Virus record (IMG/VR): IMGVR_UViG_2671180979_000021
DNA: 15,097 nt
Reading direction: 5' to 3' (one strand)
DNA from: a virus
Taxonomy: Duplodnaviria; Heunggongvirae; Uroviricota; Caudoviricetes
In this document: positions 7,326 through 15,097 of the stretch, piece by piece
Layout: every line of letters starts with the position of its first letter
Position numbering within the stretch: the stretch's first letter is position 1
Made by a program: the position numbers and the translations under genes
The notes under the pieces: model-generated
What the model was told of the DNA's origin: nothing
The model's database searches: none
The model's input: only the letters and a program-made list of their open reading frames with translations

Positions 7326-7398
7326 AATATGTACCTCCGGTGTACATATTACATGATTGGAATGAACCTTCAAGATACTTGTACCTTAACGGTACAAG
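7326..7398. promoter_or_regulatory. Divergent immunity control region with two 17-bp operators of form TGTAC-N7-GTACA
   Basis: O1 at 7330-7346 (TGTACctccggtGTACA, within the palindrome aATATGTAC...GTACATATt). O2 at 7380-7396 (TGTACcttaacgGTACA, within cTTGTACC...GGTACAAg). Both lie between the Cro-like and CI-like starts. A TTGTAC-N18-TTAATT arrangement could act as a pRM-like promoter for a near-leaderless repressor mRNA. Confidence 0.6.
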
Positions 7399-7413: not shown

Positions 7414-8088
7414 ATGAAAACAATCCATGACATCCGGCGGTCTAACGCCAGAAAACTGAGAGATGGTGTTGGCGGGAATTCTTCCTTTGCCACTATGATT
7501 GATCGCGAGCCAACCCAGACCAGCAGGTTTATGGGAGATGGTGCTACTAAAAATATCGGTGACAGCATGGCACGACACATCGAAAAATGTTTCGACCTAC
7601 CTGTCGGATGGCTCGATCAAGAACACCAGACAACGAACATCACAAAAAAACCTGATGTTTCAATCACTAATAAACAAATCACATTAGTCCCTGTCATATC
7701 ATGGGTACAGGCCGGAGCATGGAAAGAAGTTGGATATTCTGAGGTTGATTTGAGCACAGCAGAAACTTACCCCTGCCCTGTACCCTGTGGCGAAATGACT
7801 TATATCTTGCGGGTGATTGGTGATTCAATGATTGATGAGTACCGCCCTGGAGACATGATTTTTGTTGATCCCGAAGTCCCTGCCTGCCACGGTGACGACG
7901 TTATTGCATTGATGCACGATACAGGCGAAACCACCTTCAAGCGATTGATAGAAGATGGAACACAGCGTTATCTCAAAGCATTAAACCCAAACTGGCCTGA
8001 GCCTTACATTAAGATTAACGGTAATTGCTCTATAATTGGTACAGTGATTTTCTCGGGAAAACCAAGAAGATACACAATAAAGGCCTAA
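7414..8088 (+). CDS. CI-like prophage repressor (N-terminal HTH, C-terminal S24 LexA-type peptidase)
   Basis: 224 aa. C-terminal catalytic Ser (IGDSMIDEY) and Lys (TTFKRL) spaced as in S24 peptidases. Divergent from the Cro-like gene, with operators in the intergenic region. Confidence 0.85.
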   Translation: MKTIHDIRRSNARKLRDGVGGNSSFATMIDREPTQTSRFMGDGATKNIGDSMARHIEKCFDLPVGWLDQEHQTTNITKKPDVSITNKQITLVPVISWVQAGAWKEVGYSEVDLSTAETYPCPVPCGEMTYILRVIGDSMIDEYRPGDMIFVDPEVPACHGDDVIALMHDTGETTFKRLIEDGTQRYLKALNPNWPEPYIKINGNCSIIGTVIFSGKPRRYTIKA

Positions 8089-8100
8089 TCAATATTTATG

Positions 8101-8123
8101 AACCTGCTTCGGCAGGTTTTTTT
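8101..8123 (+). terminator. Rho-independent terminator downstream of the repressor gene
   Basis: AACCTGC-ttcg-GCAGGTT followed by TTTTTTT (8117-8123), 13 nt after the repressor stop codon. Confidence 0.75.
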
Positions 8124-8127
8124 ATAC

Positions 8128-8156
8128 TTGACAATGTACCCATGAGATACATAATG
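8128..8156 (+). promoter_or_regulatory. Sigma70 promoter (pL-like) with repressor operator O3 in the spacer
   Basis: TTGACA at 8128-8133, 17-bp spacer, ATAATG at 8151-8156. The spacer contains TGTACccatgagATACA (8135-8151), a one-mismatch copy of the TGTAC-N7-GTACA operator. Confidence 0.7.
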
Positions 8157-8573
8157 TATCCAAAAGAAACATGAGGCAGGCAAGATTCAAACAAAATTTG
8201 GTTGTAACACGGCGTATGGCACATGCGTCGTTAGCGGTCTGGGGACGTTAAAGGGGACAATCCACTTCTTGCTCGGGCAAACAAACCAGGTAGCCGGAAT
8301 GTGCAAGTCAATGATGATGCTGATAAGACGCCTAACCAGCGTGGCGATCCGGTTTGACGCCTGGGAAGAGACCAGGGTGCAACGATGAGGGCATTTATAG
8401 AGCCGCGACAAAGTGTGGTGCCGTAACTGGCTAAGTGCTCTCAGCGTTGTGGTAATCCGCGAAATGGCGCGGCGGTAAGTATGGCGGGGTTACTCTTTCC
8501 CCGTTGAGGACACCGGATTGTCAGGTTGACCATACGCCTGAGTGACAACCCCACCACAACAGCCACTGCTTTG

Positions 8574-8619
8574 GCGGTACCAGTTTGTACACTTGCTTCC
8601 GGCTGGTACCGCTCTTTTT
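8574..8619 (+). terminator. Leader hairpin plus T-run (candidate attenuator or terminator) overlapping a boxA-like CGCTCTTTTTA
   Basis: GCGGTACC (8574-8581) pairs with GGTACCGC (8605-8612) around a 23-nt loop, followed by tcttttt. CGCTCTTTTTA (8610-8620) resembles the boxA consensus CGCTCTT(T)A. Confidence 0.35.
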
Positions 8620-8756
8620 ACAAAACAGAGAAGAGCATCACCGGACGACGGGCTCATAACCCAATCCATCCGGGCGGCTGCCACCGCAGGTGTTCTTCTC
8701 TGTTTTGTGGAGAAACCAACCGACCTTGCAGGGTCGATATGATGAGGAGCAGCAAA

Positions 8757-9119
8757 ATGGCTAGCGAACGCAGTACTGATGTGCAGGCATTTATCGGGGA
8801 GCTGGACGGCGGCGTATTTGAAACCAAAATCGGCGCAGTTCTCAGTGAAGTCGCTTCCGGTGTGATGAACACGAAAACCAAAGGTAAGGTCTCACTCAAC
8901 CTGGAAATCGAACCATTTGATGAGAACCGTGTGAAAATCAAACACAAACTCTCATATGTTCGCCCGACTAACCGCGGGAAAATTTCCGAAGAAGACACCA
9001 CCGAAACGCCGATGTATGTCAATCGCGGTGGTCGCCTGACTATTCTGCAGGAAGACCAGGGACAATTACTGACTCTTGCCGGTGAACCTGACGGAAAACT
9101 CCGCGCAGCAGGTCATTAA
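8757..9119 (+). CDS. YfdP-like hypothetical protein, 120 aa
   Basis: ATG at 8757 with GAGGAG 7 nt upstream. 120 aa, directly upstream of a YfdQ homologue as in CPS-53. The track ORF start at 8526 is unsupported. Confidence 0.65.
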   Translation: MASERSTDVQAFIGELDGGVFETKIGAVLSEVASGVMNTKTKGKVSLNLEIEPFDENRVKIKHKLSYVRPTNRGKISEEDTTETPMYVNRGGRLTILQEDQGQLLTLAGEPDGKLRAAGH

Positions 9120-9184
9120 TATCGTTCTTAATTAACTGATTATTTATCTCATCACTGAATATCTTTATATAGTGAGGACTTATT

Positions 9185-10009
9185 ATGTCTCAGAACTTAG
9201 ACGCAACCGCAATTAATCAAATCCATGCTCTTATTTCTGCTCAGGGTGTTAATGAAATTATCAGTAATATTGGTGCCGATGCTGTGGCATTGCCTGAGAA
9301 TTTCCGCATTCATGATCTGGAAAAATTTAATTTAAATCGCTTCCGTTTCCGTGGCGCGCTTTCCACTGCCAGCATCGATGATTTTACCCGTTATTCTAAA
9401 GATCTTGCAGATGAAGGCACCCGCTGCTTTATCGATGCTGATAATATGCGTGCCGTCAGTGTGCTTAACCTGGGTACTATTGATGAACCAGGTCACGCAG
9501 ATAACACCGCCACTCTCAAACTGAAAAAGACAGCACCGTTCTCTGCTCTGTTGTCTGTTAACGGCGAGCGTAACTCCCAGAAGTCACTGGCAGAATGGAT
9601 TGAAGACTGGGCCGACTACCTTGTGGGCTTTGATGCTAATGGTGACGCCATTCAGGCAACCAAAGCGGCTGCGGCGATCCGTAAAATCACAATTGAAGCG
9701 AACCAGACCGCTGATTTTGAAGATAATGACTTCAGCGGCAAACGCTCCCTGATGGAGTCTGTCGAAGCGAAGACCAAAGACATTATGCCAGTGGCATTTG
9801 AATTTAAATGCGTTCCGTTTGAAGGTCTGAAAGAACGTCCATTTAAATTACGCCTCAGCATTATCACTGGCGATCGTCCTGTACTGGTTCTGCGCATTAT
9901 TCAGCTGGAAGCAGTGCAGGAAGAAATGGCTAACGAATTTCGTGATCTGCTTGTTGAGAAATTCAAAGACAGCAAAGTAGAAACCTTTATTGGTACTTTC
10001 ACCGCCTGA
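9185..10009 (+). CDS. yfdQ: YfdQ-family protein (DUF2303), 274 aa
   Basis: Length and sequence character match the E. coli CPS-53 YfdQ family as I recall it. RBS GAGGA upstream of the ATG. A hairpin (aaatgcccc/ggggcattt, 10022-10043) follows the stop codon. Confidence 0.75.
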
Positions 10010-10137
10010 TTTCATTACTGCAAATGCCCCTGCGGGGGCATTTATGGAAACGTAATTAACTCAATAATCGCCGGATGGTGCGGGATTCCTTTTACCCGAA
10101 TTCAGCGCGGTGCAGCGCATATAAAGTGGAGAACGAA

Positions 10138-10674
10138 ATGTCATTTATTAAAACTTTTTCCGGGAAGCATTTTTATTATGACAAGATAAATAAAGACGAC
10201 ATCGTGATTAACGATATCGCGGTTTCCCTTTCAAATATCTGTCGCTTTGCAGGACATCTTTCACACTTCTACAGTGTCGCCCAGCATGCGGTGCTTTGCC
10301 GCCAGCTGGTGCCGCAGGAATTTGCTTTTGAAGCGTTAATGCATGATGCAACAGAAGCGTATTGCCAGGACATCCCCGCACCACTGAAACGACTTCTTCC
10401 TGACTATAAACGGATGGAGGAAAAAATAGACGCCGTAATCCGTGAGAAATACGGGTTACCTCCTGTTATGAGCACGCCAGTGAAATATGCCGATCTCATC
10501 ATGCTGGCAACCGAACGCCGCGATCTCGGACTTGATGATGGCTCTTTCTGGCCTGTATTGGAAGGTATCCCGGCAACAGAGATGTTCAAAGTGATTCCAC
10601 TGGCACCGGGCCATGCCTACGGGATGTTTATGGAACGCTTCAACGAGTTATCGGAATTACGCAAATGTGCATAA
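10138..10674 (+). CDS. yfdR: HD-domain 5'-deoxynucleotidase YfdR-like, 178 aa
   Basis: HD motif (ALMHDATEAY) with the earlier His (AQHAV). ATG at 10138 preceded by GGAGA. Length equals YfdR (178 aa). The track ORF begins earlier at 10075. Confidence 0.8.
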   Translation: MSFIKTFSGKHFYYDKINKDDIVINDIAVSLSNICRFAGHLSHFYSVAQHAVLCRQLVPQEFAFEALMHDATEAYCQDIPAPLKRLLPDYKRMEEKIDAVIREKYGLPPVMSTPVKYADLIMLATERRDLGLDDGSFWPVLEGIPATEMFKVIPLAPGHAYGMFMERFNELSELRKCA

Positions 10675-11543
10675 CTCATGTAGTTAGTTTTTCTGGCGGG
10701 AGAACATCTGCATATCTTGTTCACCTGATGGAAGAACAAAGAAAGGCTGGCAATAACGTCTGCTACATCTTTATGGATACCGGTTGCGAACATCCGCTGA
10801 CATACCGCTTTATTCGGGAGGTTGTGAAGTTCTGGGGCATACCGCTAACTGTGTTGCAGGTCGATATAAATCCAGAGCTTGGGCAGCCAAATGGTTATAC
10901 GGAATGGGAACCAAAGGATATTCAGACGCGAATGCCGGTGCTAAAACCGTTTATGGACATGGTTAAAAAGTACGGTACGCCATACATCGGCGGCGCATTC
11001 TGTACTGACAGGCTAAAACTCACCCCTTTCACGAAATATTGAGATGACCATTTTGGGCGAGGGAATTACATCACATGGCTGGGTATTCGTGCAGACGAAC
11101 CCCGCAGGCTGAAACCGAAACCGGGCGTCCGGTATCTCGCCGAACTGTCAGATTTTGATAAGTCGGATGTTATCCGGTGGTGGCGTAAACAGCCGTTCGA
11201 TTTACTTATCCCTGAGCACCTCGGGAACTGTGTTTTCTGCATCAAAAAGTCAACGCAAAAGCTGGGGCTTGCATGTAAGGACGAACCTGGCCTGATGCGG
11301 GTTTTTAATGAACTGGTTACAGGCCAACACGTCAGGGACGGTCATCGCAGAACAGGTAAAGACGTTATGTACCGTGGTCATCTGAGTCTTGAAGGGATTG
11401 CCAGAATGTATGCCGACAGCGACTACTGGAATTTGTATCAGGCGATGGTGCAGGCCGGGCGATTCGATACCGGCTCGTGTTCAGAGTCATGTGAAATCTG
11501 GGGTGATCAACTGGAGTTGAAATTCGAAGAGGTAGTTACATGA
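10665..11543 (+). pseudogene. PAPS reductase-like (PP-loop) gene interrupted by a single in-frame TGA at 11040-11042
   Basis: N-terminal PP-loop motif SFSGGRTS. The same frame stays open from 10665 to 11543 apart from the one TGA (FTKY*DDHFGRGNYITWLGIRADEP...). This corresponds to the split yfdS/yfdT pair position in CPS-53. Confidence 0.55.
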
Positions 11544-12196
11544 CAAACAAAATTGACTATCAGGCACTGCGTGAGGCGGCAGTGAAAGCCGGTGAAGATA
11601 AGTGGCAGGCTAAAAAAATAAACGGTGATTTTTTCGTTATTCGTCACGGTAGTTATACAAGACAGCATGGCTACACATCGTATCAACCCATTGCGGAGAT
11701 TGATTGTAAGCCTGTCCGGGATTTTGTTGCCAGGGCTAATCCGGCTACCGTGCTGGCGCTGCTAGATGAACGGGAAAGAAACCAGCAATACATAAAACGC
11801 CGCGACCAGGAGAACGAGGAAATTGCGCTAACGGTAGGGAAACTGCGTGTTGAGCTGGAAGCCGCAGAGAAGCGCAACGCAAAATTACAAAGAGAGAATG
11901 CATACATCCGCAACCGGTACAAAGAACTGGACCTATTAATCGGGAAAAACATTCTGGTCATGCAGGCTGCGATTATCGAATGGCAATCGACTGGCGACGC
12001 TAAAAGCGGACTGGCATGGATTTATAACACACTGTTTGGCCCAGGCGAATTACCGGACGAATCTGAGAAAGATGCTCAGGCCTACTTTAATCGCAAATAT
12101 GCACCGATTGACGAAAAGCTTATGGAGCTTCACAAGTGGTTTTGGGAACAAAGTGAAGCCGAGCGCGCCGCTGGCATTCGCATCAAAGGAGAGTGA
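11540..12196 (+). CDS. Ead/Ea22-like protein
   Basis: Contains the characteristic ANPATVLALLDERE motif and a coiled-coil region. ATGA overlap with the upstream gene; RBS GAGGTAG. Confidence 0.7.
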   Translation: MTNKIDYQALREAAVKAGEDKWQAKKINGDFFVIRHGSYTRQHGYTSYQPIAEIDCKPVRDFVARANPATVLALLDERERNQQYIKRRDQENEEIALTVGKLRVELEAAEKRNAKLQRENAYIRNRYKELDLLIGKNILVMQAAIIEWQSTGDAKSGLAWIYNTLFGPGELPDESEKDAQAYFNRKYAPIDEKLMELHKWFWEQSEAERAAGIRIKGE

Positions 12197-12391: not shown

Positions 12392-12958
12392 ATGACCACT
12401 ATTACCAAAGAACGCCTGCTGACAATCCAGCAGTGGCGCGAAACATACGGACCTGGCAGCAACGTTGTACTGCCAGCAGAAGAAGCGGAAGAACTGGCAC
12501 GAATTGCACTGGTATCGCTGGAAGCAGAGCCTGTAAGCCAAACTTACAACTTGCCAGAATTAATCGAAGGCATGGAAGTTTCCATTGATGTAAGCACTTG
12601 TGATGTTGATTTAGGTAATCGCTATTTCGGTACCGTCACCGAGGCGTTAGAACTTGATACAGCCAAAAATGGTTACATCCTCCTAGTTCAGGACGCAGAG
12701 CCAAACTTCGATGTAAATGGCAACTCTCCGGGAACTCCGGATAGTTGGATAAGCTGTAGTGATCGAATGCCTGAAAAGGGCCAGAACGTGCTTATTTCGG
12801 TGAATTTCGATAGCTCTCAGGTTGAACCGCTAATATGCTCCGCACGCTATACCGGAAGCACCTTTCGGCGCGGAGATGCAACGATTAAGCCGGGTAATGG
12901 TATTGAGCAAGCAACTCACTGGATGCCGCTACCGGAACCGCCGCTGGAGGTGAAGTGA
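12392..12958 (+). CDS. DUF551 domain protein
   Basis: C-terminal W-x-S-C-S-D-R-M-P...ATHWMPLPEPP pattern is typical of DUF551 prophage proteins. Confidence 0.7.
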   Translation: MTTITKERLLTIQQWRETYGPGSNVVLPAEEAEELARIALVSLEAEPVSQTYNLPELIEGMEVSIDVSTCDVDLGNRYFGTVTEALELDTAKNGYILLVQDAEPNFDVNGNSPGTPDSWISCSDRMPEKGQNVLISVNFDSSQVEPLICSARYTGSTFRRGDATIKPGNGIEQATHWMPLPEPPLEVK

Positions 12959-13530
12959 TGAACAACTTAATGATCGACCTTGAGACGATGGGGAAAAATA
13001 AGGATGCACCGATCGTTTCCATTGGCGCGGTGTTCTTCACTCCAGAAATCGGAGACATCGGACAAGAATTCTATACGGTTGTTAGCCTGGAAAGTGCTAT
13101 GGAGCAAGGAGCTACACCTGACGGCGATACCATCCTGTGGTGGTTGAAACAAAGCCCTGAAGCACGAGCTGCAATCTGTATTGATGATACTTTGTCGATC
13201 AGCGATGCTCTCTCAGAACTAAATCATTTCATTAACCGGCACGCAGACAATACGAAATATTTAAAAGTCTGGGGTAACGGAGCCACCTTCGACAACGTAA
13301 TTTTACGTGGAGCTTATGAGCGAGCAGGACAAATCTGCCCGTGGGCATACTGGAATGACCACGATGTACGCACGATCGTTACGCTTGGGCGTTCCATCGG
13401 ATTCGACCCCAAAATGGACATGCCTTTCGATGGCGAACGGCACAACGCCCTGGCTGATGCCCGTCATCAGGCAAAATATGTTTCCGCTATCTGGCAGAAA
13501 TTAATTCCTGCCACCAGCACAGAATTATGA
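12958..13530 (+). CDS. DnaQ-like (DEDDh) 3'-5' exonuclease
   Basis: Exo motif I (IDLETMG) and motif III (HNALADARHQAKY). ATG at 12958 overlaps the upstream TGA, with GGAGG 7 nt upstream. Confidence 0.75.
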   Translation: MNNLMIDLETMGKNKDAPIVSIGAVFFTPEIGDIGQEFYTVVSLESAMEQGATPDGDTILWWLKQSPEARAAICIDDTLSISDALSELNHFINRHADNTKYLKVWGNGATFDNVILRGAYERAGQICPWAYWNDHDVRTIVTLGRSIGFDPKMDMPFDGERHNALADARHQAKYVSAIWQKLIPATSTEL

Positions 13531-13566
13531 TTTTCCCGGGTGCAGCCGGTTTTGATGGAGAAAATT

Positions 13567-13848
13567 ATGAACACCTTGTTTTTACTGATGGCTGAATTCA
13601 ATACCCCAAACATTGAACTCTCAGCAGTTAGCCAAAAGTACTTTGGTATGAGTCCAGCCACGGCAGAAGCAAAAGCAAACGCTTGTAAGTTGCCCGTTCC
13701 AACATATCGCATCGGCACATCACAAAAAGCAAAACGTTGCATCAATATTCAGGATCTTGCGGAATACATAGACAAAAGGCGAGAAGAAGGACGTATCGAG
13801 TGGGAACAGGTCAGAACAGTCAAACAGAAGGGCAAAGAAAATCACTAA
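13567..13848 (+). CDS. PrtN/excisionase-like small DNA-binding protein
   Basis: ATG at 13567 preceded by GGAGA. Sequence FGMSPATAEAKANACKLPVPTYRIGTSQKAKRCINIQDLAEYID resembles the pyocin activator PrtN / excisionase-like wHTH family. Last gene before the bidirectional terminator. Confidence 0.5.
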   Translation: MNTLFLLMAEFNTPNIELSAVSQKYFGMSPATAEAKANACKLPVPTYRIGTSQKAKRCINIQDLAEYIDKRREEGRIEWEQVRTVKQKGKENH

Positions 13849-14108: not shown

Positions 14109-14528
14109 TTACTCATCATCAATAGATGATACGCAATATTTATTTTTAAATTTAAGGTTCTTTGGCGTAACTTCATCAGAGATATCAAAACCGTCCAGAA
14201 TTCTATTGAATGTAGCTTCTGGCATATCATCATGAACAGAAATCTCACCCGATCGCTGCTTTCTAACCATGTTATCCACTCGCCAAATTATAGCTTCAGC
14301 GTAAACAACATAACTTGGATGCTTGATAAAGCGATGATCACCAGAATTCAAGACGCAAGACGGATCGTGGGGGACACCATCCTTGATACTAGAAATATTA
14401 ACAACTAAAACACAATAACAATCGTTAACGGGGTAATAAACAGGATCATTACAAATCACATGAAGATGATTGCATGGTCCAGTTGGGGCAAGCACAGTTC
14501 CTTTCCTGTATGGCTGATAATCCGTCAT
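14109..14528 (-). CDS. Hypothetical protein, 139 aa; candidate toxin/effector partner of the upstream Panacea-domain gene
   Basis: ORF whose start overlaps the stop of the upstream gene by 4 nt. Cys/His-rich N-terminal half (GPCNHLHVICNDPVYYPVNDCYC). AT-rich. No family recognised. Confidence 0.55.
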   Translation of the reverse strand: MTDYQPYRKGTVLAPTGPCNHLHVICNDPVYYPVNDCYCVLVVNISSIKDGVPHDPSCVLNSGDHRFIKHPSYVVYAEAIIWRVDNMVRKQRSGEISVHDDMPEATFNRILDGFDISDEVTPKNLKFKNKYCVSSIDDE

Positions 14529-15097
14529 GATAATTGCAAAGAAAATTCCTTAAGTTTCTGAGATTCTTCCATTTTGCCAATTATGCGATTAGCCTCATCC
14601 TCGCTTTTACCCTCACTGATCAGCATTTCTTTCAGGTCTATAGGCTTACGAGAATTGCCAGGATCGTGCCACTCTGGACAAACGCTTTCTAAATGCGTCA
14701 TATTTGCGAGATCAAATCGGTTCATATGCCCATACCGAGAATAGATTTCATCTAAAATCCGGATATCTGCACGACTCAATTCATCAAAGACCTCGTCTGC
14801 ATCCATTTCCCTCGGATCTGAACGCAACGATACATTATGCCCGTTCGTCTCTATCAAGTTGTACCAGTAGTCACCAATGCCTTCAGCCTTACCGCGAATC
14901 AAGTTCAGCGTATTCGACATGACTGGTCCAAATTTCATAGAGTAAAGGCTATCTTCGCCGATCATCCTGCCATGCTTCAAAATCGACTGGCGGTTAGACA
15001 GATAGAGCAGCTTCATCAATTTCAGATATGCCATGCGCCCACCTCTCTTAAGAAGTAGGTATGCAGCCATTTGAGCTACTTTTTCTTCGCAAAACAT
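14525..15097 (-). CDS. Panacea-domain (DUF4065, SocA/PanA-like) putative antitoxin; 5' end may be cut by the window edge
   Basis: N-terminal AAYLLLKRGGRMAYLKLMKLLYLSNRQSILKHGRMIGEDSLYSMKFGPVMSNTLNLI fits the Panacea pattern (KLxKLLYL ... GPV) as I recall it. The ORF reaches the last base of the window, so the true start cannot be confirmed. Confidence 0.6.
   Translation of the reverse strand: MFCEEKVAQMAAYLLLKRGGRMAYLKLMKLLYLSNRQSILKHGRMIGEDSLYSMKFGPVMSNTLNLIRGKAEGIGDYWYNLIETNGHNVSLRSDPREMDADEVFDELSRADIRILDEIYSRYGHMNRFDLANMTHLESVCPEWHDPGNSRKPIDLKEMLISEGKSEDEANRIIGKMEESQKLKEFSLQLS

Follow-up and report, generated by a model that had tools for sequence, protein, structure and literature searches.

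The yfdP-yfdQ pair is the conserved unit of a four-gene block behind a structured leader RNA in an Escherichia coli prophage early-left operon

The 15,097-nucleotide stretch of DNA analysed here (the window; IMG/VR record IMGVR_UViG_2671180979_000021, Caudoviricetes) carries four consecutive plus-strand genes at positions 8757-11543. An earlier note on this DNA had read them, from domain content, as a possible repressor-controlled module for nucleotide modification or counter-defence. The four genes are present as described and their domain calls are real:

8757-9119, plus strand: yfdP, 120 amino acids, 99.2% identical to YfdP of E. coli K-12
9185-10009, plus strand: yfdQ, 274 amino acids, DUF2303, 99.3% identical to K-12 YfdQ
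10138-10674, plus strand: yfdR, HD-domain protein, 178 amino acids by the RefSeq annotation of near-identical records
10665-11543, plus strand: NinC-type frame resembling 3'-phosphoadenosine-5'-phosphosulfate (PAPS) reductase, with the PP-loop SFSGGRTS and a C-terminal CxxC...CxxxC motif

The window is an E. coli lambdoid prophage, and 4982 of 5426 complete E. coli genomes contain matches to portions of it. Cro-like, cII-like and replication genes run in the opposite orientation from the same control region, which identifies the block as the promoter-proximal part of an early-left (PL-type) operon. Its genes belong to known families in a known arrangement, and the region is an ordinary prophage region. 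YfdQ matches PF10065 over residues 7-272 with 310.7 bits (cut-off 26.6). All listed homologues of YfdP carry PF27127, a model missing from our local Pfam copy, and the window protein belongs with them by its identity to K-12 YfdP and its position directly 5' of yfdQ. YfdR, for which a longer open reading frame (ORF) begins at 10075, is 98.3% identical to its K-12 orthologue over all 178 residues and matches phrog_318 at E 1.2e-110. It falls short of the YfbR models (19.4 bits against a cut-off of 122 for NF003009, and 24.0 against 25.9 for PF12917), so that on sequence YfdR is a distant HD relative of YfbR and not its equivalog. Because identity to K-12 is 98-99%, experimental results on K-12 YfdP, YfdQ and YfdR apply directly to the proteins of the window.

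Co-occurrence was scored in 162 loci overall, among them 80 from IMG/VR and 80 taken from different GTDB species (species-level loci); these encode a YfdQ relative at 41-100% identity, and their six-frame ORFs were searched with iterated profiles. In 161 of the 162 loci yfdQ is directly preceded on its own strand by a gene for a YfdP homologue, the sole exception being a contig that begins inside yfdQ. The pairing extends to four distant phages, Vibrio phages 24E30.2 and 1.151.O, Xanthomonas phage CP2 and Pseudomonas phage pAN, where the ORF directly 5' of yfdQ is a YfdP homologue at E 5e-20 to 2e-34. The yfdP-yfdQ pair is an obligate two-gene cassette that travels together in phages of gamma-proteobacteria. 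At a DNA identity of at least 95% it is found in 2722 of the 5426 complete E. coli genomes, in up to 7 copies.

The other two genes are far less constant. yfdR follows yfdQ in 139 of the 162 loci and in 59 of the 80 species-level loci, being missing from Marinobacter, Photobacterium, Hahella and other loci; the NinC-like gene accompanies yfdQ in only 10, all of them from E. coli. These counts indicate that the conserved unit is the yfdP-yfdQ pair, often joined by yfdR as a third gene, the NinC-like gene being an optional insert. The set of four does not extend beyond E. coli, and the proposal that the block forms a single module did not hold. Which genes to delete and co-express in future work follows from this: the pair, and not all four.

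The NinC-like gene is 79% identical to lambda NinC (92% positives over 285 amino acids), which places it in that family, and its reading frame in the window is not intact. An in-frame TGA at 11040-11042 occupies codon 126, at which intact relatives encode Cys. Of the 80 close relatives from IMG/VR, 79 are free of internal stops, and a 96.5%-identical copy in another strain, with Cys at codon 126, is annotated as an intact protein of 292 amino acids. The stop makes the NinC-like gene a pseudogene in the window, while yfdP, yfdQ and yfdR are intact. The protein is also distinct from the true reductases of PAPS or adenosine-5'-phosphosulfate (APS), CysH: only residues 5-71 match PF01507 (35.3 bits), the score against the CysH equivalog PRK02090 is 20.5 bits (cut-off 154), and CysH and APS reductases of the Protein Data Bank (PDB) match at E 0.003-0.008 over ~60 residues.

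Several lines of evidence tie this family to DNA modification. The N-terminal half of the protein matches SspD at E 1.3e-14 and DndC weakly (~5e-3). In a Vibrio crassostreae phage (34E29.1; locus L273, 3501-4940), a NinC-like PP-loop domain and a Dam N6-adenine methylase domain are joined in a single protein of 479 amino acids, which links the NinC family to DNA modification; the window protein is 55% identical to the N-terminal domain of that fusion protein. Furthermore, the cited passages of PMC13551039 and PMC10945359 credit Piel et al. (2022) with a phage PAPS reductase that counters Dnd defence, vibriophage homologues being cited in this anti-Dnd role; this activity reaches us through secondary citations, and the gene tested there may differ from the gene matched here. 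We conclude that the NinC-like gene is an optional add-on tied to DNA modification and counter-defence, and that it is dead in the window. The earlier suggestion of such a role is therefore reasonable for this gene alone, by virtue of the SspD match, the Dam fusion and the anti-Dnd citations, with the reservation that its copy here is a pseudogene. Through this link, a lambda gene left without explanation since the sequencing of the genome acquires a function that can be tested.

Could all four proteins nevertheless act in one nucleotide-pool or DNA-modification and counter-defence pathway, in which nucleotides would be supplied or removed by the HD phosphohydrolase and activated by the PP-loop enzyme, with YfdP and YfdQ serving as accessories? 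The HD and PP-loop domains are adjacent, and NinC-like homologues are linked to Dnd evasion and to a Dam methylase. Among the 69 E. coli loci with sufficient sequence upstream, close NinC-like alleles (at least 92% identity) lie downstream of yfdQ in 61 and immediately follow yfdR in 53; more distant NinC homologues sit in other contexts. Against such a pathway, the NinC-like gene occurs in none of the 80 species-level yfdQ loci and is lacking from ~90% of E. coli yfdPQ loci; its DNA is present in 542 of the 5426 complete genomes. Lambda carries ninC in its nin region without yfd genes, Stx-type phages hold an unrelated protein of ~160 amino acids in the place of yfdR between yfdQ and the NinC-like gene, and in the window the NinC-like gene is broken while its three neighbours are intact. 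No PADLOC profile matched YfdP, YfdQ or YfdR. The co-occurrence data largely refute the one-pathway account, and we consider it very improbable.

The block is preceded by a control region whose elements are as follows:

7330-7346 and 7380-7396: two operator palindromes of the form TGTAC-N7-GTACA, between the cro-like and repressor genes
7414-8088, plus strand: cI-type repressor with a LexA-like S24 self-cleaving domain (PF00717, 92.8 bits); a near-identical record is annotated as LexA family
8100-8119, plus strand: hairpin with a T run, resembling an intrinsic terminator, that ends the repressor transcript
8128-8155, plus strand: PL-like sigma-70 promoter TTGACA-16-CATAAT, 11 of 12 matches to consensus
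8573-8619, plus strand: GC-rich hairpin (GCGGTACCAG / CTGGTACCGC) followed by TCTTTTT, inside the leader, with the shape of an intrinsic terminator
8612-8736, plus strand: conserved structured leader RNA, 125 nucleotides, ending 20 nucleotides before the yfdP start codon

A third operator, TGTACCCATGAGATACA (8135-8151), lies between the -35 and -10 hexamers as a 17-bp palindrome with one mismatch. The window thus holds three sites of the TGTAC-N7-GTACA type where 0.24 are expected, a number reached in 0 of 200 shuffles. The repressor gene is found upstream of yfdP on the same strand in 136 of the 162 loci. Repressor control of the 8128-8155 promoter is a well-supported prediction from these near-consensus hexamers and the operator palindrome in their spacer, in agreement with the earlier description of an operator-containing, repressor-controlled promoter. 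The four genes do come first in the operon as that description had it, although a leader of ~600 nucleotides separates the promoter from yfdP. Their immediate expression on induction, also expected in the earlier note, is uncertain, because a terminator-like hairpin stands in the leader between the promoter and yfdP.

A terminator-shaped hairpin is present in the leader of 14 of 25 related loci, built from at least four different, unrelated stem sequences; the other 11 have a putative short AGGAG-ATG ORF where the hairpin would sit. At loci such as L115, L130 and L161, AGGAG-N-ATAATGTTCTG replaces the hairpin ~45 nucleotides upstream of the RNA element. This sequence could be a short leader ORF (MFCRG..ALFT) or could supply a -10-like GATAAT box; the MFCRG..ALFT frame meets a stop at the start of the RNA's outer stem in some loci. 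Separately, E. coli MSB1_9I, to which the window is most closely related, has a ParA-family gene inserted between the repressor and the yfdP leader (locus L243, 2075-3160), marking the leader region as a site of extra-gene insertion.

The leader RNA itself consists of a ~23-bp outer stem around two hairpins, plus a small 3' hairpin, and one of the inner hairpins presents a GGG-CUCAUAA-CCC loop at 8650-8662, which may resemble the anticodon arm of initiator tRNA. The 150 nucleotides 5' of yfdP are 75-97% identical at the DNA level across genera in which the YfdQ proteins are only 55-70% identical. Folding of the window sequence gave z = -5.9. In an independent MAFFT alignment 96.9% of cells were paired, as compared to 39-53% in slid-partner controls, and compensatory changes were found in 11 pairs as compared to 2-6 in the slid controls, with 0 of 500 shuffles reaching the observed values. 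The element is assigned to the plus strand because it contains G-U pairs and because the plus strand scores much higher (118 versus 35 bits).

This RNA occurs before yfdP in prophages of many Enterobacterales genera and is unannotated in their RefSeq records. A covariance model built from it (R1) matched just 5' of yfdP with at least 100 bits in 31 sources and with E < 0.005 in 13 further species; it had no match in K-12, in Stx-type loci or in the Vibrio, Xanthomonas and Pseudomonas phages. The leader RNA matched no Rfam family. Its 66-nucleotide core is also found downstream of Q and tRNA genes in Klebsiella phages. In phages GZ7 and Chronis (loci L274 and L275, both 2509-2574), the core lies directly after the tRNA genes and upstream of a terminator and lysis genes; the Klebsiella copies carry compensatory changes in the closing stem and constitute a second, late-operon leader context.

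Two more conventional explanations of the element were rejected. It is not called as a tRNA by ARAGORN, and the "tRNA-Asn/Arg" labels at the Klebsiella phage matches belong to true tRNA genes that adjoin it. A protein-coding explanation fails because in some loci the frame in common is interrupted by a TAA where the outer stem begins and because length differences in the variable hairpin are not multiples of three; in addition, substitutions in the stems are compensatory and not synonymous.

The position of the leader RNA favours a role in controlling transcription or translation at the entry to the operon. One reading of it is that the RNA represents a new cis-regulatory or polymerase-modifying class governing early-left read-through, and that yfdP-yfdQ encodes a new DNA- or RNA-handling machine forming large assemblies; we put this forward tentatively, as unlikely. 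Another is that YfdP, YfdQ or both bind the leader RNA, in autoregulation or as a ribonucleoprotein, making the RNA and the gene pair one unit. The RNA stands next to the pair in the Enterobacterales prophages described above; the pair occurs in Vibrio, Xanthomonas and Pseudomonas phages where the model finds no RNA, and the core recurs in the late operon of Klebsiella phages. We rate this binding idea as improbable.

The proteins of the pair offer few structural clues. The AlphaFold2 (AF2) model of YfdP matched no fold, and structure prediction, proposed in the earlier note as a check, gave a fold assignment for neither YfdP nor YfdQ. The YfdQ family comprises 1804 clusters at 50% identity, and among the best 150 of these every member is a stand-alone protein of ~270 amino acids, so that fusions yield no Rosetta-stone clue. 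Conserved residues of YfdQ are Arg-rich and include His104, Glu140 and Asp141. PDB entry 9o7m contains 36 chains of a YfdQ that is ~93% identical to ORF37 of Xanthomonas phage CP2, which suggests that the protein forms or joins a large assembly. The pair is carried by half of complete E. coli genomes, yet has no recognisable fold or assigned activity.

For YfdQ and YfdR, the only experiments point to DnaA and replication initiation rather than to the nucleotide pool or DNA modification (PMC4776307). In K-12, extra copies of a minimal set consisting of yfdQ and yfdR plus one of the genes yfdS and yfdT suppress the over-initiation seen in hda, dnaAcos and seqA mutants, and the same gene set inhibits initiation in wild type; yfdP is dispensable (PMC4776307). 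K-12 YfdR binds domain I of DnaA in a manner dependent on Phe46 and competes with DiaA and DnaB; it is also a weak 5'-deoxynucleotidase, acting on 5'-deoxynucleoside monophosphates (5'-dNMP) with an affinity much lower than that of YfbR (PMC4776307). The authors propose a role in the ancestral phage analogous to that of lambda P (PMC4776307). The window encodes a protein of the domain type of K-12 YfdS, which is the third member of that inhibitory set, in the part of the operon that follows the block:

11540-12196, plus strand: Ead/Ea22-like gene, next in the operon after the PAPS-reductase-like frame (PF13935, 92.1 bits)
12392-12958, plus strand: DUF551 protein, sharing its domain with K-12 YfdS
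12955-13530, plus strand: DEDDh 3'-5' exonuclease (Rv2179c-like), often found near yfdPQ(R)
13540-13848, plus strand: excisionase of the PrtN/TorI type (phrog_1300), at the end of the early-left operon

Together, these observations lead us to favour, at roughly one chance in two, a patchwork of three independently assorting units in the early-left operon, of which YfdQ and YfdR most likely serve the takeover of host replication. The first unit would be yfdP-yfdQ, the second yfdR and the third the NinC-type gene. On prophage induction the repressor would be cleaved, and the predicted operator-bearing promoter at 8128-8155 would drive the operon. The transcript would first cross the terminator-shaped hairpin and then form the conserved, structured RNA of the leader, whose probable role is to set the amount of transcript or translation that reaches yfdP. 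YfdR, aided by YfdQ and the DUF551-type protein, would then take up the surface around Phe46 on DnaA needed by DiaA and DnaB, and new initiation at host oriC would stop while the phage replicates. The DnaA mechanism comes from overexpression and in vitro assays in K-12, and we extend it by analogy to an induced prophage. If the K-12 result holds during induction, it would amount to a widespread means by which temperate phages shut off host replication initiation.

A number of observations weigh against this host-takeover role. The DnaA effect was obtained only with multicopy plasmids, a yfdQRST deletion produced no initiation phenotype, and the authors allow for an overexpression artefact (PMC4776307). 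The DUF551 protein of the window has no blastp match to K-12 YfdS at E < 1e-3. yfdP-yfdQ occurs without yfdR in 21 of the 80 species-level loci and in distant phages, so that the pair's own activity cannot depend on YfdR. Finally, Vibrio and Xanthomonas phages carry the pair among recombination genes, a neighbourhood that points to DNA recombination rather than to DnaA: in Xanthomonas phage CP2 it lies two genes from an ERF annealing protein, and in the Vibrio phages it lies between exonucleases (YqaJ-like) and the single-stranded DNA-binding protein SSB, with ERF also near.

This last observation bears on the main rival explanation, in which YfdP-YfdQ with the DEDDh exonuclease, and perhaps YfdR, would make up an unrecognised recombination or DNA-end module in the slot of exo/bet/gam or erf/abc. 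The pair's position between the repressor and xis/int in the early-left operon is the usual place of a recombination (Rec) module, and exo, bet, gam, erf and abc2 are missing from the window and, within 6 kb, from 78 of the 80 species-level loci. For the window, phmmer found no match with lambda Exo, Bet or Gam, HK022 Erf or Abc2, or ERF seeds from CP2 and Vibrio phages, seeds for RecT and Sak4 not having been tried. The Rv2179c-like exonuclease recurs near the pair, including in Pseudomonas phage pAN, where an HD phosphohydrolase is also present. The Arg-rich conserved residues of YfdQ and the large assembly indicated by its 36-chain structure fit such a role, and yfdQ mutants are reportedly sensitive to methyl methanesulfonate (MMS) and hydrogen peroxide, according to a passage of PMC4776307 that cites the finding. 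Set against it are the K-12 experiments that connect YfdQ and YfdR to DnaA. We hold a recombination or DNA-end function to be possible and, on balance, unlikely; replication takeover by YfdQ and YfdR remains our preferred explanation.

Additional features of the operon and its flank are recorded here. The plus-strand operon also includes a 63-codon ORF, listed between the Ea22-like and DUF551 genes. In PADLOC, the profile "DpdH" is matched at E 1.3e-35 by the Ea22-like protein over its C-terminal half; this profile is probably prophage-derived or mislabelled and not that of a Dpd component. Beside the excisionase, a low-GC segment on the minus strand (14109-15097) encodes a Panacea-domain (SocA-like antitoxin) gene (14525-15097) followed by a 139-amino-acid ORF (14109-14528) with no Pfam match; at this end of the prophage the two probably form a toxin-antitoxin or defence moron. 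Chi sites (GCTGGTGG) number nine in 15 kb, seven of them on the minus strand, a density that looks high. This content recalls the lambdoid type with no Rec module and many Chi sites that is described in a 2025 survey (PMC12315714).

We compared the locus with known systems. DndC and SspD share with the NinC-like protein an N-terminal PP-loop ATP-pyrophosphatase half, and the match covers only half of the profile. Unlike Dnd and Ssp systems, the window lacks partner genes: none of DndA/B/D/E or SspA/B/C was found among its ORFs or family matches. Lambda NinC (orf290) has the same PP-loop and the same C-terminal Cys motifs, and is non-essential in lambda, where plaques form without ninC after correction for polarity on Q. 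In lambda the gene is flanked by ninB and ninD in the early-right nin region, whereas the window copy follows yfdR in the early-left operon and has a stop within its frame.

The closest relative among characterised elements is the cryptic K-12 prophage CPS-53 (KpLE1), which has yfdP, yfdQ and yfdR in the same order at 98-99% protein identity and likewise ends its operon with a TorI/PrtN-type excisionase. The two differ beyond yfdR, which is followed in CPS-53 by yfdS (DUF551) and yfdT and in the window by the NinC-like pseudogene and the Ea22-like, DUF551 and exonuclease genes. The earlier statement that the block is conserved as yfdPQRST in CPS-53 is hence correct for its first three genes and not for the fourth, since K-12 has no PAPS-reductase-like gene. 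CPS-53 has also lost the repressor, the promoter and operator, and the structured leader RNA.

Beyond K-12, lambdoid phages commonly have a yfbR/yfdQ/yfdP cluster in their early-left operons according to the 2025 survey, which treats two of its members as small genes without known function (PMC12315714). In the early-left cluster that this text describes for LLS, ST64B, phiNP and ArgO145, the same three gene types occupy the same operon position. The portion of the survey available to us makes no mention, for these phages, of a leader RNA or of strict YfdP-YfdQ pairing beyond lambdoid phages (PMC12315714); by blastn, we detect the leader RNA in ST64B, phiNP and LLS. Phages mEp460, cdtI and SfV have this leader as well.

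The nearest precedent for the RNA is the put antiterminator RNA of HK022. The covariance model, run with filters off, found nothing significant in HK022 (best E 0.17, outside the put sites), and the leader RNA is unlike put in having a long closing stem and in lying downstream, not upstream, of a terminator-shaped hairpin. The two are alike in being structured, cis-acting RNAs in an early-operon leader of a lambdoid phage lacking N, as put is in HK022, and in having a multi-hairpin core of similar size, ~66-70 nucleotides. The leader RNA would add a regulatory layer to the early-left operons of lambdoid phages without N.

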